Shown here in pieces: positions 11,590-63,853 of a stretch of DNA of 64,000 nt (positions are counted from its first letter, which is position 1; each line of letters starts with the position of its first letter). The notes beneath the pieces are model-generated. The model saw only the letters and a program-made list of their open reading frames with translations. It was not told the origin of the DNA and searched no databases. A program made the position numbers and the translations under genes. The stretch comes from an uncultured Gemmatimonadaceae bacterium. Its GTDB lineage: Bacteria; Gemmatimonadota; Gemmatimonadetes; Gemmatimonadales; Gemmatimonadaceae. The stretch covers positions 2,496,001 to 2,560,000 of the forward strand of contig OY970320.1 in NCBI GenBank assembly GCA_963716745.1. Reading direction: 5' to 3'.

Positions 11590-14500
11590 GTGACGCGCCG
11601 CAGCCTTGTCGCCCTCATCAGTGCCAGCGTGCTCCTCGCCATCATCTTGGTGGCGGCGATCGCGGTGTTGATGACGACGCAGACCGACTTCGGCCGCGAG
11701 CGGATCAGGAACCTCGTGCTCGCGCGCGCGTCGCTCGCGATCGGCAAGCGCGGGAAGCTCTTCATTGGAAAGATCTCCGGCTCGCTGTTCACCGAGATCG
11801 TCGTGGACTCGCTCTCGCTGCGCGATGCCGAGGATTCGCTGGTGATCGCGACGGGGCCGCTCCGGCTCACGTTCGATCCACGCGATTTCTTCGACCAGCG
11901 CATCCACCTGCACAAGGTGGACATCGCGCGGCCGACGATCAATCTGCGGCGCCATGCGAACGATGACTGGAACTATCAGACCATCTTCCCGCCGGCGAAG
12001 AAATCCAAGATCCATACGCCGGGATTCGGCGACTACATCGTGGCCGACTCGGTGACGCTGCATGACGGGACGTTCATGCTCACCGAGATGTGGCAGCCGG
12101 ATGATTCACTGAAGGGCGCGCGGCGCGACAGTGCGGTGAAATTCGCGCTCGCGCGCGCGTGGCCCGAAGTGCGCGTCACGAAGGAGGGGCTCAAGCGCAC
12201 GCGGCGCTGGACGCGGCTCAATATCGACGCGCCGCGCGCGCGGATCGCGATGCCCGACAGCGCGGGGCAGCTGATCACCCTCGCATCGCTCTCCACCGTG
12301 GAGAACGATCCGCCCACCGAGGTGCACAACATCCGCGGCACCGTGCGCATCCACGGCGACAGCGTGTGGCTGAATCTCTCGAATGTGGAGCTGCCGCATA
12401 CGCACGCGCGTGACCTTGTGGCGCGCATCTGGTGGGGCGGGAACAAGCCGGTGCAACTCGATCTCCATGCTGTTTCCGACACCCTGACGCTGGCCGACTT
12501 CGCCTGGGTCTATTCGGGATTGCCTCGCACCGGCGGCGGACGCACCGAGATCACCGTGAAGAACGACCCGAAAGACCTGCGGGTGCTCGAGTACGCGCTC
12601 CACGGGATGGACCTGCGCACCATGAACTCGCATCTCCGCGGGGACATGACCGTCGGCGTGGGCGGACCCGTGCTCATCGTGAAGAATGTCGCGGTGCGTC
12701 TCGAGCCCGCCGATTTCGATCTGTTGCGCACGTTCAACGGCGGCACCTTCCCGGTGGATTTCCGGGGCCAGTTCACGGGTGCCATCTGGGCGCCGGGCGG
12801 GCCGATCAACCGCTGGCGCGTGGACAGTGCGTCCCTCACCTACACCGATGCGCATGTGCCAGGCGCGGTGTCGCACCTGGATGCGAGCGGCGAGCTCGAC
12901 CTGCTCGTGCCCTCGCTCACCAAGTTCCGCGGCTTCGACGTGAATCTGAACGCGCTCGACCTGCGCACGGTCACGTACCTGTTCCCGAATTTCCCGCGGC
13001 TCGGCGGCACGATCACCGGCAGCGCGACGCTCGACTCGGTGTGGACCGATGTGCGCTTCAGCGATGCCGACATCGAGCACCACGACGGGCCGGAGGAGCC
13101 GACGCACATGACGGGCAGCGGCCGCGTGACGAGCACCGGTCCTTCGGTGCGTTTCGACGTGGCGCTCCAGGCGTCCCCGATCTCCTTCAGCGAGCTCGCG
13201 CTCTCGTACCCATCGCTGCCGATCCGCGGAACGATGTCGGGGCCGCTGCGCGTGCAGGGCACGACGAACGGCCTCGCACTCACGACGAATCTCACCGGCG
13301 ACGCCGGCACGCTCGTGGTGGATGAGATGATCGACATCGACACCGCCGGCGGCGAGGGGGCGCGCGGCACCGTGCGCGCCGCGGGACTGGATCTGGCGCA
13401 GCTGCTCGACCGCCCGTCGGTGCCCACGACGCAACTGTACGCGCAGGTGACGAACGATCTGCATGGCGATGCGCTCGCCACAATGTTCGGCACGCTCGAT
13501 CTCACGGTGGATACGTCGCGGGTGAAGAGCATCCGGGTGCCGCACGCGACGGCGCGCGCCCACGTCGCGGATGGCCACGTGATCGTGGATTCGCTCACGC
13601 TCACATCCACGGGCGTGCGGGCGCTGGGGTCGGGCATGCTCGGGCTGGCGCCGGGCGCGCATGATACGCTGCGCTTCACCGCCGACATCGATTCGCTCGG
13701 CGGGCTGCGCCCGTTCATCGCGCCGGGCGGCAACGAGGGCGATACCGTGACCATGAGCGCGGGCGAACTGCTTGCGCGCGCGCGGCGCGATTCGCTCGAC
13801 GGCACGTTCAGCGTGGCGGGATTCCTCGCGGGCTCCGCGGCCGACTCGTTCACCGCCAGCGCGACCTTCCTCGGCGAGCACCTCGTGCGCGGCGCCGACA
13901 TGGCGACGCGCCTCGCAGGCGGATTCGACGTCGGCGGACTGCCCAAGTCGCCAACCGGCACGCTGTGGATGCGCCTCGACTCGGCGCGCATCGCCGGCGT
14001 GGGGATCGATACGGTGCACGTGCAACTCGCGATGCGCGGACTCGACAGCGGCGCCGTGACGCTGTCGCTCGCGACCGTGCGGCCGGCGGGCACAATGCAC
14101 GGCGGCGCACGGATCATCTACTCCATCGCGCCGGACACGCTGCGGTTCACGCTCGACACACTGCGGCTCGTGACCGGCGGTGCTGGCGGGCACACGTGGC
14201 GGCTCCTCAGGCCCGCGCATTACGCGCGCTACAAGGACGGCGATTTCCTCGATTCACTCGTCGTGAGCGGCGGCCCCGGTGGACGGCTCGCGATCCACGC
14301 CGATCTCCCCGCAACGGGCGCGATCTCCGCGCTCCTCACCGCCGACAGCGTGAGCCTCGGCGACCTCGGGCAGATGGCGCAAGTGCGAAGCCCGCTCGGC
14401 GGCTACGTCGCCGCGGAAGTTCGAATCTCCGGGACGCGCGACGATCCGGTCATGCATCTCACCTCGCGCTTCCGCGATGCGAAATACGGCACCATCGTGG

Positions 14501-16143
14501 CGCCCTATTTCAGTCTCGATGCCGACTACGCGAGGCGCATGCTCGTGTCGCGCGCCGATTTCTTCGACAAGAGCCAGACCATCGCGACGCTCGCACTCTC
14601 GCTGCCCGCCGATCTCGCATTGCATGCCGTACCCGAGCGTTTCCCGGATGAACCGCTCAGCGGGCGCCTTCGCGCCGACAGCGTGGACATGGCGGTGTTC
14701 GCGTCGATGTCGCCGTACCTCAGCCAGCCCACCGGCATCGCGAACGTGGACCTCACGTTGTCGGGCACGCGCAGCGATCCCCAGTTCACCGGCTTCTTCA
14801 AGCTGCGCAATGCGGCCGTGGGCCTGCCGCGGTTCGGCGTGCGGCTCACGGCGCTGCAGGCGGCCGTGTCGGTGGCGCCTGGCGAGATCAAGATCGATAC
14901 GCTCTCGATGAAGAGCGGCTCGGCGAGCGGGAACTTCATGTCGCTCACCGGCACACTGCGCACGCCCGACCTGCTGGACCTCGTGGACGATCGCAGCGCG
15001 CTCGTGCTCGATCTCCACATGGTGGCGCACAACTTCCAGATCCTCAACAGCCGGAAGATCGCGCGCGTCGAGCTGACGGACAATGTGACGCTCACGGGCA
15101 AGTTCAGCGCTACGACGCTGCGCGGGCACATCGCGGTCGACAACGCCGACTTCTACGTGGCCGATCTCGCGGGAAAGAAGACCGTCGTCGATCTCGACGA
15201 TCCCGAACTGTTCGCCGACCCGGCGGTCGCGGCGACGCGCAATCTGGGCTCGACGCTCCCGCCCGATGTGCGGGACGCGCTCGCGAACCTGCAGGTGGAC
15301 AACCTGGACGTCGTGCTCGGTGACAAGGTGTGGCTCCGGTCGGACGTCGCCGAGATCAAACTCGGCGGCGCGGTGGTGATCACCGGCTCGGGCACGCGCA
15401 GTCTGAACGGGAAGATCTTCGTGCAGCACGGCACCTACCGGCTGGACCTCGGGCTCGTGCAGCGCACCTTCACCGTGGACTCGGGCAGCGTGCGCTTCTA
15501 CGGCGACGTGGAGAAGGGAGGCCTGCTGGATGTGTGGGCCTCGAGCACGGTGCGTCAGGCGAATCGCCAGGGCGAGGACGTGAAGATCCTCGCGCACATC
15601 ACCGGCACCACGAACGATCCGCGTCCGGAGTTCTCGAGCGGCGAGCGGTATGCGCTGTCGGAGCCGGAGATCCTGAGCTATCTGATCTTCGGCCAGCCGT
15701 CGTTCGTTCAGGGGACGAATTCCGCGGGCAGCACCGCCACGTCGGTCTTGCTGCCGAGCGTGGGCACCGCGATCGAGCGCGCTCTCTCGGGCCAACTCCA
15801 CTGGGTGGACCAGATCACGATCCAGTCGGGCGCGACGACGCCGCAGAGCGACCAGTACAGCGCGCTCTTCGGTTCACGGTTCGGCGTGGGCAAGCAGCTG
15901 GGTGACAAGACGTACGTCGCGGCGAATGCCGGCTTGTGCTTCCTGCAGAGCTCCGCGACCAGCGCGACCAGCTTCTCGCAGTCGCTGGGCCTGTCGGTGG
16001 AGCAGCGCCTGGGCGACAAGTACGTGCTGCAGGCGTCGCGCGAGCCCGCGTCGGCGGCGATGCTGTGCAAGCCGGGCACCACGGACATCGGGAGCCGCCC
16101 GGCGCAGTACGGCATCGACCTCTTCCGCGAGTGGACCTTCTAG
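11590..16143 (+). CDS. tamB: Translocation/assembly module TamB-like protein
   Basis: 1517 aa with an N-terminal TM, a beta-rich body and a C-terminal DUF490-like region (ILSYLIFG). Lies directly after the Omp85 gene. Confidence 0.8.
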   Translation: MTRRSLVALISASVLLAIILVAAIAVLMTTQTDFGRERIRNLVLARASLAIGKRGKLFIGKISGSLFTEIVVDSLSLRDAEDSLVIATGPLRLTFDPRDFFDQRIHLHKVDIARPTINLRRHANDDWNYQTIFPPAKKSKIHTPGFGDYIVADSVTLHDGTFMLTEMWQPDDSLKGARRDSAVKFALARAWPEVRVTKEGLKRTRRWTRLNIDAPRARIAMPDSAGQLITLASLSTVENDPPTEVHNIRGTVRIHGDSVWLNLSNVELPHTHARDLVARIWWGGNKPVQLDLHAVSDTLTLADFAWVYSGLPRTGGGRTEITVKNDPKDLRVLEYALHGMDLRTMNSHLRGDMTVGVGGPVLIVKNVAVRLEPADFDLLRTFNGGTFPVDFRGQFTGAIWAPGGPINRWRVDSASLTYTDAHVPGAVSHLDASGELDLLVPSLTKFRGFDVNLNALDLRTVTYLFPNFPRLGGTITGSATLDSVWTDVRFSDADIEHHDGPEEPTHMTGSGRVTSTGPSVRFDVALQASPISFSELALSYPSLPIRGTMSGPLRVQGTTNGLALTTNLTGDAGTLVVDEMIDIDTAGGEGARGTVRAAGLDLAQLLDRPSVPTTQLYAQVTNDLHGDALATMFGTLDLTVDTSRVKSIRVPHATARAHVADGHVIVDSLTLTSTGVRALGSGMLGLAPGAHDTLRFTADIDSLGGLRPFIAPGGNEGDTVTMSAGELLARARRDSLDGTFSVAGFLAGSAADSFTASATFLGEHLVRGADMATRLAGGFDVGGLPKSPTGTLWMRLDSARIAGVGIDTVHVQLAMRGLDSGAVTLSLATVRPAGTMHGGARIIYSIAPDTLRFTLDTLRLVTGGAGGHTWRLLRPAHYARYKDGDFLDSLVVSGGPGGRLAIHADLPATGAISALLTADSVSLGDLGQMAQVRSPLGGYVAAEVRISGTRDDPVMHLTSRFRDAKYGTIVAPYFSLDADYARRMLVSRADFFDKSQTIATLALSLPADLALHAVPERFPDEPLSGRLRADSVDMAVFASMSPYLSQPTGIANVDLTLSGTRSDPQFTGFFKLRNAAVGLPRFGVRLTALQAAVSVAPGEIKIDTLSMKSGSASGNFMSLTGTLRTPDLLDLVDDRSALVLDLHMVAHNFQILNSRKIARVELTDNVTLTGKFSATTLRGHIAVDNADFYVADLAGKKTVVDLDDPELFADPAVAATRNLGSTLPPDVRDALANLQVDNLDVVLGDKVWLRSDVAEIKLGGAVVITGSGTRSLNGKIFVQHGTYRLDLGLVQRTFTVDSGSVRFYGDVEKGGLLDVWASSTVRQANRQGEDVKILAHITGTTNDPRPEFSSGERYALSEPEILSYLIFGQPSFVQGTNSAGSTATSVLLPSVGTAIERALSGQLHWVDQITIQSGATTPQSDQYSALFGSRFGVGKQLGDKTYVAANAGLCFLQSSATSATSFSQSLGLSVEQRLGDKYVLQASREPASAAMLCKPGTTDIGSRPAQYGIDLFREWTF

Positions 16144-54556: not shown

Positions 54557-55403
54557 CTATCTATCCGGGTCAACCATATCCTCGAAGCGCAGCCACTTCT
54601 TGTAATAGAAGAGGTCGATGTACGTCGTCGCGCCGGTGCGGTTCTTGAGGATCGCCAACTCCGTCGCGCCCTCCTGCCCGAACGCCGGATTATAGAGTTC
54701 GTCGCGATAGAGGCCGAGCACCACATCGGCCAACTGCTTCACCGATCCTAGCGCGCCGAAATCGTCGAGCACCGGGCGCATGTTCTCGCGCACCGCCGGG
54801 CAGGGCGGGCAAGTGCGCGGTCACGATGAGCGCGACGTTCGCGCTCACGGCCGCATCCTTCAGGCGCCGCACGGCGTGCGCCAGTTCCTCGTCCTGCGCC
54901 AGCGCGCCGTGCGGGACGTGCTGCAGCGGGTCGATCACCACCAACTCGGTGCCGGCAGTCTTGCCGATAGCCTTCAGCAACCCGTCCGCGCCGCCGGCCG
55001 GCATGCGCGCCACTTTGGGCAAATGGTCGTGCAGCCGCAGTGTCGCGGCGCCCACATTCGCGCGCGTGATCTCATCCATGATGCCGGTGCGCAATTCGTC
55101 GATGCTCGCGCGCCCCTCGATCGCCAGCGCGCGCTCAAGCACCCGCTCGGCGTCCATCTCGGCCGTGTAGAACTCCACGCCGCGCCCGCTCTCCGCCGCC
55201 CGCAGCGCGAATGCCAGCGCGAGCGCCGATTTCCCCACCCCCACGTCGCCGCCGAGTACCACGAGATCGCCGCGGCGCACGCCGCCGCCCAGGTTCTTGT
55301 CGAGCGTGGGGAAGCCGGTGGGCACCGTGTTCGCCGGCGGCGCGCCGTCGGCGATGGCGTCCACGCGCTTCACGAGTTGGGTGAGCCGCGAGCGTCTGGG
55401 CAT
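54557..55403 (-). CDS. DnaB-like helicase C-terminal (RecA-fold) domain-only protein (frameshift near 54790)
   Basis: TGFPTLD, GDVGVGKS, AEM, VIDPLQ, ADVVLGLYRDELY, KNRTG. Confidence 0.82.
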
Positions 55404-55495
55404 GAGGAACGGAGTATAGAAGTGCGCGAAAAACGGGCAAGCCCGCGCAACACATCGTTGCAGGTGTAAGACGCTCGCGGCTACATTCCGATACG

Positions 55496-57058
55496 ATGGC
55501 CCAACCCCTCAAGTCGGTCCTCTGGGTGGACGACGAGGCCGATCTCCTCGAGTCGCACCGGATCTATCTTCGCGAGAAGGGATTCGAGGTAGATGCCGCC
55601 ACGAACGCCGATGACGCCGTCGAGATGCTTCGGCGGCGCCCCTACGGCATCGTGCTCCTCGACGAGCAGATGCCCGGCAAGCGCGGCCTCGAAGCGTACC
55701 GCGAGATCCGCGAGCTCGATCCGCTCCTGCCCATCGTCATGGTCACGAAGAGCGAGGAGGACGCGGTGCTCCGCGAGGCGATCGGCGTTGACGTGCGCGA
55801 TTACCTCGTGAAACCGATCAATCCGCGCCAGGTGCTCACGGCGATCACGAAGGTGCTCGAGGGCCCGCGCATTCGCGCGCAGGCGCTTTCGCGCGCCTTC
55901 GTCGAGCGGTTCCGCGAGATCGAGCTCGAGCCGAAGCTCACGCTCGATTGGCGCGGCTGGATCTCGCGCTACACGGAGCTCGCCGAGTGGGACATCGCGC
56001 TCGCGGATGCGAAGGAGCAGAGTCTCTACGACTCGCTGCAGGGACTCTATCCCGCGCTCCGAAAGGAATTCGCGAACTGGATGCGCCACGAATACCCGCG
56101 CTGGCTGCGCGAGCTCGAAGGCGACCGGCCGCCGCTCTCGGTGGACGTGGTCTCGGAGTTCCTGCTGCCGATCCTCGAGCGCTCGCGTGCGGCGGTGTTC
56201 ATCGTGGTCGACTGTCTTCGTCTCGACCAGTGGATGACGCTCGCGCCCATCCTCGCGCCCTGGTTCGACGTCGAGACCACGCATCATTTCGCGGTGCTCC
56301 CCACGGCCACGCCGTATTCGCGCAACGCGCTCTTCTCGGGGCTCTTTCCCGGCGAGATCGCCGCGCGTTTCCCCGATTGGTGGGGCGAACGCGAGGATGA
56401 ATCGCTCAACGCGCACGAGAAGCAATTGCTCGAGGCGCATCTCGCCGAGCTCAAGATCGCCGTGCCGGTGCGCTACGATAAGATCTCGAGCGCCAACGAC
56501 ACCGCCGACCTCGAGCGCCGCGTCTCGGGCGCCATCGCGCACGAGGGCGTGAGCGCGTTCGTCTTCAACTTCGTGGATCTGCTCACGCATGGCCGCTCGG
56601 AGTCCGCGATCCTGCAGGAGGTCGCGAAGGACGAGATCGCGCTCCGCGCGCTCACGAAACAATGGTTCGAGCGCTCGGTGCTCTTCGCGCTCCTGAAAGA
56701 GGCCGCGCGCCGCCGCATCCCCGTGCTCATCACCAGCGATCACGGCTCCATCCACTGCCACACGCCCGCGACGGTGTTCGCCAAGCGCGACGCCACCGCG
56801 AACCTCCGCTACAAGTTCGGAGAGGACCTGCGCGCCGAACGCACGGAGCACGCACTGCTCTTCGGGAATTCCGATGACCTGCGCCTTCCGCGGCGTGGAC
56901 TCGGCGACAACACGCTGCTCGCCGTGGGCGACACGTTCTTCGTGTATCCCACCAAGCTGCGCGAGTACCAGTCGCGCTATCGCGGATCGTTCCTGCATGG
57001 CGGCGTGACGCCGGAGGAATGCATCCTGCCGGTCGCCTTGCTCACGCCCAAGAGTTGA
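55496..57058 (+). CDS. PorX-like response regulator (REC + PglZ/alkaline-phosphatase domain)
   Basis: WVDDE, LLDEQMPG, VTKSEE, VDCLRLDQW, LPTATPYSRNALF, SDHG, HGG. Confidence 0.88.
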   Translation: MAQPLKSVLWVDDEADLLESHRIYLREKGFEVDAATNADDAVEMLRRRPYGIVLLDEQMPGKRGLEAYREIRELDPLLPIVMVTKSEEDAVLREAIGVDVRDYLVKPINPRQVLTAITKVLEGPRIRAQALSRAFVERFREIELEPKLTLDWRGWISRYTELAEWDIALADAKEQSLYDSLQGLYPALRKEFANWMRHEYPRWLRELEGDRPPLSVDVVSEFLLPILERSRAAVFIVVDCLRLDQWMTLAPILAPWFDVETTHHFAVLPTATPYSRNALFSGLFPGEIAARFPDWWGEREDESLNAHEKQLLEAHLAELKIAVPVRYDKISSANDTADLERRVSGAIAHEGVSAFVFNFVDLLTHGRSESAILQEVAKDEIALRALTKQWFERSVLFALLKEAARRRIPVLITSDHGSIHCHTPATVFAKRDATANLRYKFGEDLRAERTEHALLFGNSDDLRLPRRGLGDNTLLAVGDTFFVYPTKLREYQSRYRGSFLHGGVTPEECILPVALLTPKS

Positions 57059-58887
57059 TGCGCGCGACGAAGTTCTATCCGCGGTTGATCAAGTTCCTGC
57101 GGCCGCACGGTTGGCGCATGGCGGGCAACATCATCTTCAACTTGATCGGCGCCGCACTCGATGGGTACTCGTTCGCGCTGCTCATCCCGTTCCTGAACGC
57201 GCTGTTCAACCAGCCGCCACTCGTGGTCGGACGCGGCTGGGTGAACAACTTCCTGCAGTTCACGATCGGCGCGCTGCTCGATGCGGCGCATCCTATGACG
57301 TCGCTGCGCAACGTGATCGTGGTCCTGCTCGCCGTCGTGGCGGTCAAGAACATCTTCATCTGGCTCGCCAACGTGCTCGGCGCCGAGCTGCAGGAGTACG
57401 TCACGCGCGACATGCGCGACGCGGTCTACCACCACCTCGTCGCGCTCCCGATCCGCTATTTCACCAGCACCAAGGTCGGTCAGATCCTGTCGCGCGTCCT
57501 CAGCGACACCGAGCAGACCAAGTCGCTCGTCACCGAGGTCGTGACGAGGGCGGTGAACTCGGCCTCGCTCGTCATCGTGTACATCGCGTATCTCCTCGGC
57601 ATCTCGTGGAGACTCACGCTCATCTCGCTCATCATCGCGCCGCTCCTCACGCTCGTGCTGCAGCCGCTGCTCCGCCGGCTGCGCCACGGCTATCGCGTGT
57701 TGCGCAACGATCACGGCGAGATGATGAGCGTGTTGCAGGAGAGCGTCAGCGGCATCCGGCTGGTGAAGTCGTACGGCGCCGAGGAGTACGAAGATGCGCG
57801 CTTCACCGGCGCCAGCTTCAAGTACTCGAGCGGTCTGGTGCGCATGGCGCGCATCGCCAACATCGCGCAGCCGCTCACGGAAGTCCTCGGCATGGTCATC
57901 GTCGCGGTGCTGCTCTGGATCGGCGCGCGGGAAGTGCTCATCGACAATTCGCTCCAGGCGTCGCAGTTCATGGTGTTCATCGCCTTCGTGATGCGCCTGT
58001 TGCAGCCGATGAAACAGCTCTCGCAGATCCCGGCCGTCGCGCAGAATTCCTTCGCGAGCGCCGAGCGCATCTTCCAGGTGCTCGATCATCCCACCGAGCA
58101 GGCGCTCGACAAGGGCACGCGCATGGTGGATGGCTTCCGCCGGTCGATCGTGTTCGACACGGTCTCGTTCGCGTACGACGACGAACCGGTGCTCAGCGAC
58201 ATCCAGTTCGCCGCGAAGAAGGGCGATGTGATCGCCTTGGTGGGCGCGAGTGGGGCGGGGAAGAGCACGCTCGTCGATCTCATCCCGCGGTTCTACGAGC
58301 CGACGAGCGGCCGCATTCTGCTCGATGACGTGGACGTACGCGAGATCGCACTCGCCTCCCTGCGGAATCTCACCGGCATCGTGAGCCAGGAGACCGTGAT
58401 CTTCAACGAGAGCGTGCGCGCGAACATCGCCTACGGCCGGAACGACAAATACAGCGACGCGCAGATCGAAGCGGCGGCGCGCGCGGCGAACGCGCACGCC
58501 TTCATCGCCGAGTTGCCCGCGGGCTACGCGACGGTGCTCGGCGAGCGCGGCGCGCGGCTCTCCGGCGGGCAGCGCCAGCGCATCGCGATCGCGCGCGCGC
58601 TGCTGCTCGATCCGCCCATCCTCATCCTCGATGAGGCCACGAGCGCGCTCGACACCGAGAGCGAGCGCCTCGTCCAGGAAGCGATCGACCGGCTGCTCGA
58701 AGGCCGCACGGTGTTCGTCATCGCGCACCGCCTGTCCACGATCCAGCACGCCACCGAGATCCTCGTGCTCGACCGCGGCCGCGTCGTCGAACGCGGCACG
58801 CACGAGGAGCTGCTCGCGCGACGCGGCGCCTACCACCGGCTGCACGCGATGCAGTTCGGCGACCGGGAGCGGGCCGTCCCTGTCTGA
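57058..58887 (+). CDS. MsbA-like ABC exporter
   Basis: TM domain, [34 protein letters not shown]. Confidence 0.92.
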
Positions 58888-59815
58888 CGAGCGCCGCGCC
58901 ACGGTCGCGCACCGCCTCGAGTACGGCGCCCTGCGCGCGATGCTCGCGGTGTTCGGCGCGTTCCCCTGGCGGGTCTCCACCGCCGCCGCGGGGTTCATCG
59001 GCCGGCTCGGCTATTCGCCCTTCCGCATCCGCCGCCGCGTGGTGGAGCGGCAGATCGCCGCCGCGTTCCCCGGACTCTCCGCCCGCGATGTCTCGGCGAT
59101 CGCGCGCGCCTCGTATGACAACCTCGGCCGCGTCGCCGTCGAGGCGGCGCATCTCTCGCGACTCGGGCCGGAGCAGGTCATCGCGCTCTTCGACGAGATC
59201 CACGGCTGGGACGCGGTAGAGCGCGCCCGCGCGCAGGGCAAAGGCATCGTGTTCCTCACCGGCCACCTCGGCAATTGGGAACTCGCGGGCGCGATCGTCG
59301 CCGCGCGCGGCATCGCCTTCGACGCGATCGCGCGCCGCATGGGGAATCCCGTGTTCGATGCGTATCTCACGCGCACGCGGCTGCGCCTCGGGATGAACAT
59401 CGTCCCGGATTCCGACGCCGTGCGCCGGGTGCCGCGCACGCTGCGCGCCGGCGGCGCCGTCGCGTTCCTCGCCGATCAGTCGGGGCTCAACCTCGCGTCC
59501 ACCTTCGTGCCCTTCTTCGGGCGCCCGGCGAAAACGCCGCGCGGCCCCGCCGTATTCGCGATCCGGTTCGAGGCTCCCGTGATCTTCGGTGTCGCGACGC
59601 ATCTTCCCGGCGGCAAGTTCCGCATGATGTTCGAGGAGGTCCCCGTAACGCGCACCGGCGACCTCGACCGCGACACCGACGCGCTGCTCACGCGTTACTC
59701 CGAGGCGCTCGAACGCCAAGTGCGCCTCGCACCCGGGCAGTATTTCTGGCAGCACAAGCGGTGGAAGCGCCAGCCCGACACCACGCCGCCGGAGCTGCTC
59801 GACCCCACGCTGTGA
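58880..59815 (+). CDS. Lipid A late acyltransferase (LpxL/HtrB family), start uncertain
   Basis: [27 protein letters not shown]. Confidence 0.88.
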
Positions 59816-60075
59816 CCGAGCCGCGCGCGCCGCGATCGCAGCATCGCGAGCGGTTCGTCTCTGCGTCCGAGCTCGGCGAGTACGCCTACTGTCGCCGCGC
59901 GTGGTGGCTGCGTGCCGTGCGCGGCGCGCACTCGGACCTGCAAGGCACTCGCTTCGATGAAGGCCGTGCGGCGCATGAGCGGCACGCGTACGGGATCCTC
60001 GCCGCGCGCGCGCTCGCTGTCGTCGCGGCACTGCTCGTGGCGGCGGCCGCGTGCTGGATCTGGCTCGCGCGATGA
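59812..60075 (+). CDS. Cas4-like nuclease N-terminal half with C-terminal TM helix (87 aa)
   Basis: [25 protein letters not shown], then hydrophobic [23 protein letters not shown] overlap with lpxL. Confidence 0.75.
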
Positions 60076-60578
60076 TCGTCGCTGCGATCGTTCTCGCCGC
60101 CGCCATCATCCTGGCGATCGCGAGCTTCGCGCTCTACCGCCGCGCCGGGATCAGCGGTCGCATCGTCGCGAGCGATGGCCCCGTTTCGCGCCCATCGCGG
60201 GTGCTGCGCTCCGCGCGCCACGGGATCTCTGGCAAGCCCGACTACCTCGTGGTCGAGCACGGCCGCATCGCACCCGTGGAGGTGAAGCCCACGCGCGCGA
60301 GCGACCGGCCCTGGCTGCGCGACGTCGTGCAGCTTGCCGCGTATTGTCTGCTCGTCGAGGAGACGCACGAGCGCTTCGCCGGCTATGGCTATCTCCGCTA
60401 CGCCAATCGTACCTTTCGCATCGACTTCACCGACTCCATGAGGGACGAAGTGCTCAGCACCGCGAATGCTCTGCGCGATGACCTCGCCGCCACCGATGTC
60501 GATGCCAACCACGACGATCCACGCCGCTGCGCACGCTGTGCGTTGCGCACTCCCTGCGGCCGCCCGGTGAGCGCATGA
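60072..60578 (+). CDS. Cas4-like PD-(D/E)xK nuclease C-terminal half with N-terminal TM helix (168 aa)
   Basis: [45 protein letters not shown]. Confidence 0.85.
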   Translation: MIVAAIVLAAAIILAIASFALYRRAGISGRIVASDGPVSRPSRVLRSARHGISGKPDYLVVEHGRIAPVEVKPTRASDRPWLRDVVQLAAYCLLVEETHERFAGYGYLRYANRTFRIDFTDSMRDEVLSTANALRDDLAATDVDANHDDPRRCARCALRTPCGRPVSA

Positions 60579-61723
60579 CCTACGACGTGACCGCGCTCCG
60601 CGCGCGCGAATATCCGTGGGCCGAGCGCGGCGACGCCGTCTACCTGAACAACGCCTCCACCGGCGCGCTCCCGGCGCGCACGGTGCGCGCGACCGCCGAT
60701 TTCCATGCGCTGCGCGCCGAGCCGTGGCGTCTCACCGATGACGCGCAGTTCGCCATCCTGCGCCGCACCCGCGAGCTCTGCGCCACGCTGATCGGCGCCG
60801 GCGCCGATGAGATCGCGTGCATGGCGAATACGACGTACGGCGTGAACGTCGCCGCGCGGTGTCTGCCGCTCAAGTCCGGCGACGTGGTGCTCACCTTCGA
60901 TCGCGAGTTCCCCGCGAACATCTATCCGTGGATGGCGCTCGCGAAGCGCGGCGTCACCCTCGAGCGCATCCCCACGCGCGACAAGCTCCCCGACGAGGAC
61001 GCGCTCATCGCCGCGCTCGATGGGAAGAACGTGAGAGCGGTCGCGATCGGTTGGGTGAACTTCGCCACGGGATACAAGGCCGATCTCGCGCGCATCGGCC
61101 GCGCCTGCCGCGAGCGCGGGATCTACTTCGTCGTGGACGCGATGCAGGGACTCGGCGCCGCCACGCTCGACGCGCGCGCATGCCAGATCGACATCCTCGC
61201 GTGCGGCGGACAGAAATGGCTGCTCTCGCCGTGGGGCTCGGGCTTCGTCTATGTGCGACGGGAACTCGTCCAGCAGCTTGAGCCCGAGGCCGTCGGCTGG
61301 ATGGCGATGCGCGCGTCCGAAGATTTCACGCGGCTCGTGGACTATGAATTCGCCTACCACGACGACGCGCGCCGCTTCGAGGTGATCACCGTGCCGTTCC
61401 AGGATTTCGCCGGATTCAATGCGAGTCTCGGGATGATGGTCGAGCTCGGTCTCAAGAACATCGAGGCGCACGACGCGGCGCTCGTCGGCCAGGCGGTGGA
61501 ATGGGCGCAGTCGCGGAGGGATATGAAGCTCGTGACGCCGGTGGATCCCGCACGCCGCGCCGGGATCGTCTCGATCGCGCCGCCTGACCCCGCGGCCACC
61601 TCGGAGCGCCTCAAGCAGGCGAAGATCATCCACAGCCTGCGCGAAGGCGCGATACGCCTGTCGCCGCATTGCTACAATACTGCGTCCGAGATTGCGCGAG
61701 CCCTCGAAGTTCTCGGCGGGTAA
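60575..61723 (+). CDS. Class V PLP enzyme (cysteine desulfurase/cystine lyase-like)
   Basis: YLNNAST, NTT, EFPAN, VDAMQG, GGQKWLLSPWGSG, IRLSPHCYN. Confidence 0.88.
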   Translation: MTYDVTALRAREYPWAERGDAVYLNNASTGALPARTVRATADFHALRAEPWRLTDDAQFAILRRTRELCATLIGAGADEIACMANTTYGVNVAARCLPLKSGDVVLTFDREFPANIYPWMALAKRGVTLERIPTRDKLPDEDALIAALDGKNVRAVAIGWVNFATGYKADLARIGRACRERGIYFVVDAMQGLGAATLDARACQIDILACGGQKWLLSPWGSGFVYVRRELVQQLEPEAVGWMAMRASEDFTRLVDYEFAYHDDARRFEVITVPFQDFAGFNASLGMMVELGLKNIEAHDAALVGQAVEWAQSRRDMKLVTPVDPARRAGIVSIAPPDPAATSERLKQAKIIHSLREGAIRLSPHCYNTASEIARALEVLGG

Positions 61724-61804
61724 TAACAGCGCGTCTGGTCGTTGACGTGTAGCAACTGCGAACAGCGGCCGTTGCCACACGTCAACGACCAGACGCGCCG
61801 TTAT
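61723..61804. terminator. 34-bp inverted repeat between convergent genes (probable bidirectional terminator)
   Basis: ATAACAGCGCGTCTGGTCGTTGACGTGTAGCAAC / GTTGCCACACGTCAACGACCAGACGCGCCGTTAT, 2 mismatches. Confidence 0.7.
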
Positions 61805-62061
61805 AGCTTCATCCTCAACCACCGCCGCCCGACGTACACTCCCGCGCCAAGCAACGCCGCCTGTCCGAAGAATTGCACCAACCCGAACGGCGTCGGCCCG
61901 TACGGCCCGCCGCCCCTCTCCTCGATCGCACGCTCGCGCGACGGCCAGCCCGCGATCTTGATCGTGACGAGCCACACGAGCGCGCATGCCGCGATGATCA
62001 TCGCGCTGCGTGCCAACCCCTCGGGCCACGACGGCGCGAGCCTCACCCCGCCCTTACTCAT
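61801..62061 (-). CDS. Small two-TM hypothetical protein
   Basis: 86 aa with two hydrophobic segments, GGAGG SD, overlapping the upstream gene. Confidence 0.6.
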   Translation of the reverse strand: MSKGGVRLAPSWPEGLARSAMIIAACALVWLVTIKIAGWPSRERAIEERGGGPYGPTPFGLVQFFGQAALLGAGVYVGRRWLRMKL

Positions 62062-62535
62062 CGCTCGCCTCCATCTCCTCCGCGGTGAACGCGCGACGCC
62101 GGAGCGCCGCGAGCACCCACCCCCAGTTCATCGCGAATGCAGCCCGACCGCCACGAATAGCACGTTCGACGTCGAGTCATGCAGCTCGAACCAGTCCCCG
62201 TCATAGATCGTGGGCATGCCCGCCCATGGAAGCACGACGCGCGACACCATGATCCCCGAGACGATCACCAGCACCATCGCGAGGAAGAGTCCGACATTGA
62301 TCGCGTAGTTGATGCGCGTGCGCAGGCTGCCGTTCGCGAACAGGCGCTTCGCCTTCGAGATGATCCAGTGCCACGAGAGCAGCATGTGCAGCAACAGCGG
62401 CACGGCGATCGCGATGCCGATGATCTCGTGTGCCGCGACGCCCGTGATCCGCGGCGACTGGATGAGCAGGAAGAGCAGCAGGAGCAGGACGTCGAGCCAG
62501 AGCGCGAAGGCGGTACGGGACATGGGCATCGTCAC
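62054..62535 (-). CDS. DUF4405/cytochrome b-like membrane protein (frameshifted 3' end)
   Basis: HEIIG, HMLLSWHWI, SGI, LHD, GLH, with His residues in TM helices. Confidence 0.7.
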
Positions 62536-62575
62536 TATGTACGCACCACAGCGGCGCCGTGATGCAACGGCTCGC

Positions 62576-63853
62576 TCAGCCTTTCACCCGCACCAGCGCA
62601 TAGTCGCGCGCGCCCTTCTTGAGCAACAGGTGCCGGCCCGCGAGCATCGCGCTCGTCGCGATCGCCTTGTCCTCCGCCGCCAGGCGCTTGCCATTCACCG
62701 AGAGCCCGCCCTGCTCGAGCAACCGCTTCGCCGCGCCCTTGCTCGCCGCGAGCTTCGCTGTCACGAACAGCTCCGACGTCTCGAGCGAGCCGTCGGCCGG
62801 CGCGCCGATCTCCACGAACGGCACTTCCTCCGCGAGCGCCGCGAGCGCCGCGGCGGACAACGACCCCGCGTCACCCTTCCCGAACAGCAGCGTCGAGACT
62901 TCCACCGCCGCACGCGCCGCGTCGGCGCCATGCACGCGCGCCGTCACCTCGAGCGCGAGCGCCTGCTGCGCCTCGCGCTTCTCGGGCCGCGCGGCGATCG
63001 CGCCCTCGAGCGACTCGATCTCCGCGCGCGGCAAGAGCGTGAAGAACCGCAGGAACCGCCCCGCATCACGGTCGTCCGCGTTCACCCAGTATTGGTAGAA
63101 GCGGTACGGGCTCGTTTCCCTGGCATCCAGGAATACCGCGCCCGATTCGGTCTTACCGAATTTCGTGCCCGTCGCCGTGGTCACCAGCGGCATCGTGAGC
63201 GCATGCGCTTCATGTCCATCCACGCGCCGGATCAGTTCGATCCCCGCCGTGATGTTCCCCCACTGATCGCTCCCGCCGATCTGCAGCGTGCATCCTTCGC
63301 GCCGGTGCAGCTGCAGATAGTCATACGCCTGCAGCAGCATGTAGCTGAACTCGGTGTACGAGATGCCGCCCTCGAGACGCGACTTCACTGAGTCTTTCGC
63401 CATCATGTAGTTGATCGTGAAGTGCTTCCCCACGTCGCGCATGAACTCCACGGCCTTGAGCGGCAGCAGCCATTCCGCGTTGTCGCGCATGAGCGCGCCG
63501 CTCTTCCCCGGCGAGAAATCCAGGAATCGCGCGAGCTGACCCCGGATCGCGTCGGAGTTCGCTCTCACCACCTCGGGCGTATTCAACTGCCGCTCGGCCG
63601 TCTTGCCGCTCGGGTCGCCGATCATCCCCGTTCCTCCGCCGACCAGCGCGATCGGCCGGTGCCCGCTGCGCTGCAAGTGCGCCAGCACCATCACCGGCAC
63701 CAGATTCCCCACGTGCAAGCTCGGCGCGCTCGGATCGAATCCGCAGTACGCCGTCACGGTGCCCGCCTGCAGCGCCGCGCCGAGCGTCTCCGTATTCTGG
63801 TACAGCAGCCCGCGCCACGTGAGCTCGTCGAGTAGCGAATCCTTGGCCGTCAT
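62576..63853 (-). CDS. tyrS: Tyrosine--tRNA ligase
   Basis: YCGFDPSAPSLHVGN, QIGGSDQWGNI, KFGKT, C-terminal S4 domain. Confidence 0.97.
   Translation of the reverse strand: MTAKDSLLDELTWRGLLYQNTETLGAALQAGTVTAYCGFDPSAPSLHVGNLVPVMVLAHLQRSGHRPIALVGGGTGMIGDPSGKTAERQLNTPEVVRANSDAIRGQLARFLDFSPGKSGALMRDNAEWLLPLKAVEFMRDVGKHFTINYMMAKDSVKSRLEGGISYTEFSYMLLQAYDYLQLHRREGCTLQIGGSDQWGNITAGIELIRRVDGHEAHALTMPLVTTATGTKFGKTESGAVFLDARETSPYRFYQYWVNADDRDAGRFLRFFTLLPRAEIESLEGAIAARPEKREAQQALALEVTARVHGADAARAAVEVSTLLFGKGDAGSLSAAALAALAEEVPFVEIGAPADGSLETSELFVTAKLAASKGAAKRLLEQGGLSVNGKRLAAEDKAIATSAMLAGRHLLLKKGARDYALVRVKG

Follow-up and report, generated by a model that had tools for sequence, protein, structure and literature searches.

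In this work we examined a stretch of 64,000 nucleotides from an uncultured Gemmatimonadaceae bacterium (contig OY970320.1, positions 2,496,001 to 2,560,000 of the forward strand), hereafter called the window, and focused on two overlapping open reading frames (ORFs) close to its end, ORF A and ORF B. The genome is represented by a single contig of 3.29 Mb with a marker completeness of 89.8%. Sequence comparison identifies ORF A and ORF B as the putative parts of a Cas4-type nuclease divided over two genes, and we consider it likely that their products are the two subunits of one membrane-anchored iron-sulfur (Fe-S) nuclease of the Cas4 family. A preliminary description of this DNA had proposed a split, doubly membrane-anchored Cas4-like nuclease, independent of CRISPR (short palindromic repeats, clustered and regularly interspaced) and perhaps acting on DNA entering the cell, an interpretation that is partly supported by the analyses reported here.

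The two genes and their features, all on the + strand, are the following.

59812-60075, + strand: ORF A, GTG start, TGA stop, 87 amino acids; N-terminal piece of a Cas4 domain followed by a C-terminal membrane helix.
59860-59910, + strand: 17-residue Cas4 signature of ORF A (residues 17-33), including Cys27 (59890-59892), the presumed first Fe-S ligand.
59962-59985, + strand: G51-x3-H55-x2-H58 of ORF A, presumed metal-binding His helix.
60010-60069, + strand: C-terminal hydrophobic helix of ORF A (residues ~67-86), followed by a single Arg; hydropathy peak 2.49.
60072-60075, + strand: stop/start overlap ATGA of the two genes, with the ATG (60072-60074) on the TGA (60073-60075); seen from A, the reading frame of B is -1.
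60072-60578, + strand: ORF B, ATG start, 168 amino acids; N-terminal membrane helix, Cas4 nuclease core and three C-terminal Cys.
60072-60134, + strand: N-terminal hydrophobic helix of ORF B (residues 1-21), followed by YRRAG; hydropathy peak 2.89.
60174-60176, + strand: invariant Asp35 of ORF B, in a juxtamembrane motif (consensus GLPxGxxxYxD).
60231-60242 and 60279-60287, + strand: GKPD (residues 54-57) and EVK (residues 70-72) of ORF B, the PD-(D/E)xK catalytic motifs.
60330-60344, + strand: QLAAY of ORF B (residues 87-91), a QhxxY motif.
60528-60557, + strand: C153-x2-C156-x5-C162 of ORF B, presumed three further Fe-S ligands.

The motifs, hydrophobic ends and ATGA overlap that the preliminary description had listed for the two ORFs were all found where it had placed them. 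ORF A is an 87-amino-acid gene in public records too. Asp35 of ORF B may possibly represent nuclease motif I.

When searched with hidden Markov model (HMM) profiles of Cas4, A and B matched complementary N- and C-terminal parts of the family, as would be expected of the two halves that had been proposed. Among the 180 positions of the TIGR00372 cas4 profile, positions 3-45 match A (E 2.8e-4, 20.8 bits) and positions 60-178 match B (E 8.7e-15, 55 bits). The Pfam model PF01930 (Cas_Cas4/DUF83), which has a cut-off of 22.7 bits, gave 29.5 bits with B and 13.5 bits with A, the former above and the latter below the cut-off; PF12705 also matches B (E 4.9e-7). A profile built from 40 B sequences recovered the solved Cas4 structures 8D3L (1.5e-11), 7MI4 (2.1e-10), 4IC1 (1e-6) and 4R5Q (1.5e-6), and a profile of 36 A sequences matched residues 4-48 of 8D3L, in its N-terminal His region, weakly (E 0.2). 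The strongest evidence tying A to Cas4 comes from natural single-chain relatives. On the profile of a fused family with two membrane helices (8 proteins, 282 columns), the A profile aligns with columns 3-75 (E 4.5e-21) and the B profile with columns 105-276 (E 4.1e-63), and the two tile this profile such that the sole uncovered part is the loop between the helices.

The residues characteristic of Cas4 are distributed over the two chains and strictly conserved. The 36 A sequences share invariant A18, S19, E20, C27, W31, G51, H55 and H58, and in a larger set of A homologues the aromatic-x-aromatic-Cys and G-x3-H-x2-H motifs were both present in 69 of 69 proteins. In the 40 B sequences D35, G54, P56, D57, E70, K72, Q87, C153, C156 and C162 are invariant, and G29 and Y91 are at least 90% conserved. 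The same residue set is invariant in eight fused forms, all four Cys included, with D134 as the counterpart of D35. According to the available parts of PMC13621843 and PMC12501428, the catalytic metal of solved Cas4 enzymes is held by an N-terminal His together with a core Asp and Glu. Since this metal site uses the N-terminal His, B would be devoid of both one Fe-S ligand and the metal-binding His, and A is predicted to provide the two.

In order to see how the pair is distributed, several sets of homologues were compiled. A search with B gave 442 matches, the best 120 of which are all 166-200 amino acids long. Among representatives at 50% identity, 1043 match B at E <= 0.001, ordinary Cas4 included; the window protein and the best 150 of these 1043 were classified, 18 were dropped because a motif was absent or the protein truncated, and the 133 kept comprise 15 fused proteins, 112 of the split type, in which the helix precedes the core and the N-terminal Cys motif is lacking, and 6 that fit neither description. 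A search of species-representative genomes with one peptide pattern gave at least 577 confirmed relatives, and the record titles of the best 80 loci name Chloroflexota in 68 cases and Gemmatimonadota in 10, two being without a phylum name. These 80, the window locus and four loci from a phylum scan were compared as a set of 85 loci. An HMM built from A sequences located A upstream of B, at a distance of no more than 2.5 kb, in 72 of the 85; most homologues are thus also split and adjacent, a point that the preliminary description had listed for checking. The 13 loci without an adjacent A either end at a contig end (3) or have unrelated upstream genes (10).

A was nevertheless present elsewhere in the genome wherever a locus of the latter kind was searched genome-wide: in 5 of these 10 loci, all five genomes have exactly one A at another place (E 7.7e-21 to 7.9e-27). 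It lies about 395 kb from B in one complete chromosome and on another contig than B in some genomes. The two genes also co-occur at the level of phyla. Among 301 Gemmatimonadota genomes, 25 match B and only 5 matches reach the N-terminal helix of B (the window's genome, G271, G171, G278 and G084); A was found in exactly these five genomes with a B of the transmembrane (TM) type, and the other B matches correspond to ordinary Cas4 or Cas4-Cas1 fusions. The pair is rare in this sample (3 of 128 genera). Among 251 Chloroflexota genomes, full-length A (E <= 2.1e-12) is present in 55, and all 55 have a helix-bearing B. Conversely, the strongest B matches (E <= 3.3e-50) are in 51 genomes, 50 of which have A; the exception, G307, has only 244 nucleotides upstream of B before the contig end. 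Two genomes of this sample, G343 and G532, which are flagged as unpublished, contribute to the tallies only. A divergent subgroup of 14 more Chloroflexota genomes has weaker A matches directly upstream of B; in the example of locus L125 (G380:C2:675300-677400), A has about 130-158 amino acids, with an extra acidic or helical insert that separates the His motif from the membrane helix. A and B were thus found together in 5/5 Gemmatimonadota, 55/55 Chloroflexota and 5/5 unlinked cases, and the scenario in which A homologues would not accompany B was not borne out.

These data bear on the idea that B is a self-sufficient membrane nuclease, with A as an accessory protein (a regulator or an inhibitor) or an unrelated one. 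B on its own scores above the cut-off of the Pfam Cas4 model and has the complete set of PD-(D/E)xK residues, an adjacent A is absent in 10 of the 82 loci with upstream sequence (about 12%), and, according to the part of PMC13621843 that cites Rentz 2025, a mutant of the solo-Cas4 of M. mazei without its Fe-S cluster stayed active. However, A corresponds exactly to the first 75 columns, at the N terminus, of the unsplit relatives, its Cys and two His are invariant, the N-terminal His being a metal ligand in solved Cas4 (available parts of PMC13621843 and PMC12501428), and A was present elsewhere in all of the unlinked cases tested, in addition to the co-occurrence in both phyla. We therefore regard a B acting alone as improbable, and a shared enzyme of A and B as the better explanation.

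Similarly improbable is that A and B do not degrade DNA in vivo and instead put the Cas4 fold and its Fe-S cluster to another use at the membrane, for example to sense iron or redox state, to process RNA or to serve envelope biogenesis. This reading could draw on the envelope-related neighbours in three lineages (LpxL/MsbA in Gemmatimonadota, CdsA/RseP in Chloroflexaceae and YkuD in 7 Anaerolineae-type loci), on the SufS-like gene coupled to B and on the fused protein of genome G335, which is without the catalytic Asp. Against this stands the invariance of the catalytic residues in 40 split and 8 fused sequences, which suggests that phosphodiesterase chemistry is retained; the envelope neighbours may reflect co-expression of membrane proteins or chance, and the plasmid copies described below lie beside DNA enzymes. 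A nuclease remains the preferred reading of the pair.

Regarding the junction itself, contigs from sequencing runs were compared with the window. That of run X1, which may be the source sample of the genome assembly, covers 59990-60271 with 0 gaps and 1 substitution, and that of run X2, from another study, covers 59992-60102 with 0 gaps and 10 substitutions; no junction indel was seen across the 4 runs compared. Relatives at 69-93% identity share the same A/B overlap. Within the 85 loci, 51 junctions were resolved: the overlap is 4 nucleotides in 25, 1 nucleotide in 10 and 10 nucleotides in 3, and gaps of 1-43 nucleotides separate the genes in 13. The remaining 21 junctions include some in the same frame with stop codons between A and B (L005) and some with an intervening gene. 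In 7 Chloroflexota loci (L047, L055, L082, L088, L097, L106 and L108) this is the gene of a secreted protein with the L,D-transpeptidase motif SHGCIR, of which one locus, L106, was submitted to Pfam and shown to carry a YkuD domain (E 6.7e-12); in L100 a different gene, of 212 amino acids, separates A and B. The split form is under selection and is conserved in at least four phyla. The preliminary description had allowed for the split being an indel, a fallback that the gapless contigs of two studies contradict, and the genuine split that it favoured holds, with A upstream of B in most loci.

One fused product could still be made by programmed -1 ribosomal frameshifting or stop read-through, since slipping back by one base on the final sense codon of A would link the two frames exactly at Met1 of B and single-chain homologues exist. 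This is very improbable in view of the same junctions: no slippery heptamer was seen by eye in CTCGCGCGATGA, the overlaps of 4, 1 or 10 nucleotides and gaps of up to 43 nucleotides occur in both relative frames, and in 8 loci a whole gene lies between A and B, while elsewhere A is about 395 kb away or on another contig. As the junction geometry is so varied, a recoding signal is excluded and A and B are shown to be two independent cistrons. Finally, the chance that a single-chain gene was broken by an indel of sequencing or assembly, or by a recent frameshift, is negligible: B does lie in the -1 frame of A, as after the loss of one base, and frameshifts occur in a relative at 84% identity (L036), but the contigs of two studies have 0 gaps over the junction, relatives at 69-93% have the same junction, and other lineages show different registers, in-frame stops, intervening genes and an unlinked A, which is also annotated on RefSeq plasmids.

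The hydrophobic segments are conserved too. Of 113 B proteins of the split type, 112 have an N-terminal hydrophobic 19-mer, and the median number of residues ahead of it is 3; a C-terminal hydrophobic segment is present in all 69 A proteins compared, where the tail behind it has a median length of 2 residues. Lys and Arg (K/R) number on average 0.17 ahead of the B helix against 3.09 over the 12 residues that follow it, and 2.43 over the 12 residues ahead of the A helix against 0.58 behind it. Under the positive-inside rule, such a charge bias shows the membrane orientation of helices. Because of this bias, the soluble parts of A and B are both predicted to be cytoplasmic, with A running from in to out and B from out to in. 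The cut between A and B would then fall in the outer turn of a former hairpin, and A is a predicted tail-anchored protein. A cleaved signal peptide on B was considered and rejected, since the protein lacks both a positively charged n-region and a twin-arginine motif and carries its charges behind the helix. The distance from H-x2-H to the A helix is about 11 residues, and that from the B helix to Asp35 about 12 residues in the window protein. The expectation that the hydrophobic stretches would be conserved and not be signal peptides, and that both soluble halves would face the cytoplasm, is thus in line with the family-wide data. The TM hairpin within Cas4, described earlier as unusual, is present as proposed; it is not unique to this locus and rather defines a large family that has unsplit forms.

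On this basis we propose the following model, in which A and B form one enzyme. In the ancestor, one polypeptide would have carried a transmembrane hairpin, inserted behind the N-terminal Cys/His helices and ahead of the catalytic core, and the gene would have been divided within the short outer loop of this hairpin. A would contribute a cytoplasmic N-terminal part (Cys27, His55/His58) followed by one helix going from in to out, and B a helix going from out to in and, behind it, the core in the cytoplasm (Asp35, Asp57, Glu70, Lys72, Gln87 and Tyr91) and Cys153/156/162. Translation of B would be coupled to that of A via the ATGA overlap, and the two helices would pair in the membrane, re-forming the hairpin. 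The 1+3 Cys of A and B would bind one Fe-S cluster across the chains and the His of A would complete the metal site of B, and because cluster and metal site would be shared, neither subunit should be active alone. Since the linkers are short, the enzyme would be held right against the cytoplasmic membrane, on its inner face, where by analogy with Cas4 it might cut or trim DNA ends. The assembly of the subunits, the bridging Fe-S cluster, the nuclease activity and the role of the pair are all inferred from sequence.

Several observations weigh against this model or against a function in defence or DNA uptake. Neither A nor B reaches the TIGR00372 equivalog cut-off of 65 bits, and A on its own is under all curated cut-offs. 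Eight Chloroflexota genomes (G307, G443, G546, G335, G538, G310, G323 and G506, the B match of the last starting at profile position 23) have a TM-type B without an A match at E <= 0.001, and reasons were found for three of the four that were inspected (G307, G443, G335 and G310), the contig end near B being that of G307. In G443 a divergent A is present that the profile missed. In G335 there is a fused frame of 353 amino acids (L126, G335:C135:6600-8600, frame +2, 753-1811), in which GxPD has become ARPA and ExK has become DIK; the four Cys are kept and the catalytic Asp is gone, and this form may be an inactive derivative. At L036:2180-3010 (84% identity), frameshifts fuse A to B and remove the A helix and the B Cys triad, this being either a decaying copy or the result of long-read indel errors. 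The chromosomal neighbours in the 85 clustered loci are lineage-specific and of housekeeping type, never a defence island, and a tblastn search of 50,697 phage records gave no match. The plasmid contexts rest on three verified cases only, no RNA run was among the public sequencing runs containing the locus, and no biochemistry was found on any family member.

The pair was also examined for links to CRISPR. At a genome completeness of 89.8%, neither Cas1 (PF01867) nor Cas2 (PF09827) gave a match genome-wide, with positive controls; no array-like tandem repeat was found in the window, and a simple genome-wide scan for regularly spaced repeats revealed no CRISPR-like array. The A/B locus is the only Cas4-type locus of the genome. 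It is thus independent of CRISPR, as had been proposed from the window alone, and A and B are not part of CRISPR adaptation. PF12705, the AddB/RecB-type nuclease domain, gave no match genome-wide at E <= 0.001, again at 89.8% completeness, and the host organism may be without AddAB/RecBCD. A ComEC-like competence channel gene lies at C1:89130-89696 of the same genome.

The genes around the pair in the window are the following.

55496-57055, + strand: response regulator receiver plus PglZ (alkaline-phosphatase-like) domain protein, at the head of the same gene run.
57019-58884, + strand: MsbA-like ABC transporter.
58925-59815, + strand: LpxL-like lipid A acyltransferase (PF03279, E 1.7e-44; NCBIfam LpxL/lysophospholipid acyltransferase models below cut-off).
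60575-61723, + strand: class-V aminotransferase fold protein, SufS/CsdA-like (PF00266, E 1.1e-46).
62128-62532, - strand: DUF4405 protein.
62576-63850, - strand: tyrosyl-tRNA synthetase.

A and B are members of a closely packed run of + strand genes: the GTG of A shares bases with the stop codon of the acyltransferase gene upstream (GTGA, 59812-59815), and the stop of B lies on the ATG of the downstream gene (ATGA, 60575-60578). The start of the LpxL-like gene is uncertain, its frame being open from 58631. A scan of 55000-62600 for sigma-70-type promoter and intrinsic-terminator patterns found no + strand site, a result that a single transcription unit would fit. The guanine-plus-cytosine content of the locus is 0.68-0.73, compared with 0.63-0.74 nearby, and shows no compositional anomaly. 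The receiver-PglZ protein resembles PorX-type regulators. For the aminotransferase, the best NCBIfam model is the SufS family with 113.8 bits, far below the cut-off of 475; it is conceivable that this SufS-like protein is a dedicated sulfur donor for the Fe-S nuclease.

Three chromosomal contexts were distinguished among the compared loci. In Gemmatimonadota (12-13 loci) an LpxL-like gene lies upstream of A/B and the aminotransferase downstream (13 loci). The Chloroflexaceae-type context (16-23 loci) has CdsA and an RseP-like M50 protease upstream, and the Anaerolineae-type context (10-29 loci) a Translin-like gene upstream, SSB and DUF3467, and a DHH-CBS-poly(A) polymerase downstream. Such surroundings speak for a gene that is stable and passed on vertically, and against a mobile defence module. 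Searches with the PADLOC library likewise gave only similarity to Cas4 and DruK-type nucleases, with no assignment to a defence system.

Plasmids gave a different picture. Among 72,556 plasmid records, 18 match, most of them being ordinary Cas4, and 3 split pairs were verified by translation. In the plasmid PALBO2 of Paludisphaera borealis, A (91 amino acids) and B (169 amino acids) overlap by 4 nucleotides, and an MmeI-like restriction-modification enzyme of 959 amino acids is encoded directly downstream. The conjugative plasmid pSINAC03 of Singulisphaera acidiphila has A (88 amino acids) and B (169 amino acids), also with a 4-nucleotide overlap; upstream of them, in divergent orientation, an Eco57I-type N6 methylase is encoded, and the gene of a MobF relaxase is nearby. 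In the 64-kb plasmid NRS6116_2 of Bacillus subtilis (NZ_OX419581.1), A (81 amino acids) and B (162 amino acids) belong to a same-strand run (L132, record 11957-15278) of a DinG-like helicase (Helicase_C_2, DEAD_2), two small ORFs, A, B and hfq, and the genes downstream of the pair are hfq followed by those of a thermonuclease, a toprim protein and an A24 prepilin-peptidase. Two further B. subtilis plasmids have the same kind of match. A is annotated as a separate gene in RefSeq plasmids of cultured bacteria.

The biological role is the least certain step of the proposal. Since the tether would be tight, the substrate should be one that comes to the membrane, and we favour an action on membrane-contacting DNA (conjugative, transforming or phage) over general repair, with the plasmid contexts hinting at DNA traffic or discrimination. 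That the enzyme acts on DNA crossing the membrane is, within the proposed model, a tentative suggestion, which we would rate below an even chance. A broader picture, in which split and unsplit membrane Cas4 proteins are widespread nucleases that trim or destroy the ends of entering DNA (conjugative T-strands, transforming DNA or injected phage genomes) at the membrane, as a CRISPR-independent and spatially gated layer of surveillance or uptake, and in which the two-gene enzyme is switched on only when its helices meet, is speculative and rather unlikely. If the role does concern incoming DNA, the pair would be a new player in horizontal gene transfer or defence, and its plasmid copies in Bacillus subtilis and in cultured Planctomycetota make the question experimentally approachable.

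The family to which the pair belongs is large and structurally varied. At least 4151 clusters of A-type small proteins exist, and the family is at home in abundant soil and aquatic phyla. Single-chain relatives carry 2 to 8 membrane helices; the unsplit protein of Methermicoccus shengliensis (WP_052353351.1, 266 amino acids) is annotated 'CRISPR-associated protein Cas4', and the fused forms with 4 to 8 helices are 320-560 amino acids long. From 139 rows and 142 columns of the core, 6 canonical Gemmatimonadota Cas4 included, a quick maximum-likelihood tree was built, which sets the helix-bearing family apart from these six with a Shimodaira-Hasegawa-like approximate likelihood ratio (SH-aLRT) support of 95. 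The fused forms with 4 to 8 helices form one clade (98), and the fused forms with two helices are scattered among the split ones. At least nine changes between split and fused states occur on this tree, only 2-3 of them being forced by well-supported branches. The Gemmatimonadota sequences fall into a clade of 12 (100) and a separate, long-branched pair. In public records B is named 'Cas4', 'Dna2/Cas4 domain-containing' or 'PD-(D/E)XK nuclease family protein', and A 'hypothetical protein' or 'Cas4'. Labelling such proteins as Cas4 can inflate the counts of CRISPR components.

Compared with known systems, the pair combines a familiar enzyme core with an unfamiliar arrangement. Canonical Cas4 consists of a single soluble polypeptide and acquires spacers together with Cas1-Cas2, and the Cas4 relatives AddB, RecB, Dna2 and EXO5 are known as soluble enzymes as well. 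A Cas4 domain in the membrane is unusual, and more so one rebuilt from two separately encoded and separately inserted subunits, which could provide a natural split Fe-S enzyme and a bacterial tail-anchored protein with a clear partner. With CRISPR Cas4 (PF01930/TIGR00372; the type I-C Cas4 8D3L, the Cas4-Cas1 fusion 7MI4, SSO0001 in 4IC1, and 4R5Q) the pair shares the PD-(D/E)xK core and the 1+3 Cys; in contrast, its domain is in two genes with one membrane helix each, and its genome is without cas1, cas2 and an array. As for class assignment, a place in the Cas4 family is indicated by the PF01930 score of B, the catalytic and QhxxY residues and the 1+3 Cys spread over two chains, and a membrane-embedded Cas4-like protein by the helices between the Cys/His helices and the core with their predicted cytoplasmic orientation. 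The equivalog score, the company of cas1, cas2 or an array and the single soluble chain of CRISPR-associated Cas4 proper are all missing.

The 'iron-staple' nuclease domains of the AddB/RecB family, which are also of the PD-(D/E)xK type, are pinned together by an Fe-S cluster on 1 N-terminal and 3 C-terminal Cys. They belong to large, soluble machines that combine helicase and nuclease, whereas no helicase adjoins A/B in the window; the B. subtilis plasmid pair, unlike that of the window, is preceded by a DinG-like helicase. The pair further agrees with solo-Cas4 as defined in PMC5704561, a Cas4-family domain without cas genes nearby, and like the solo-Cas4 of Methanosarcina mazei (Rentz et al. 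2025, PMC12501428) it has no cas neighbours; neither membrane helices nor a form in two genes are mentioned in the available parts of these two papers. A separate Cas4-like lineage, fused to a DEDD nuclease, is described for JCVI-syn3.0 in the accessible part of PMC13621843. In literature searches, which covered sources other than subscription-only papers and these in part, a Cas4 that bears membrane helices or comes as two pieces was not met with, and the membrane-built, two-gene architecture is seemingly previously undescribed. The unsplit membrane-embedded Cas4 homologues have the same N-terminal Cys/His motifs, core residues and insertion site as the pair; they are one chain with 2, 4 or about 8 helices, whereas in A and B the chain is interrupted within the loop that joins helices 1 and 2.

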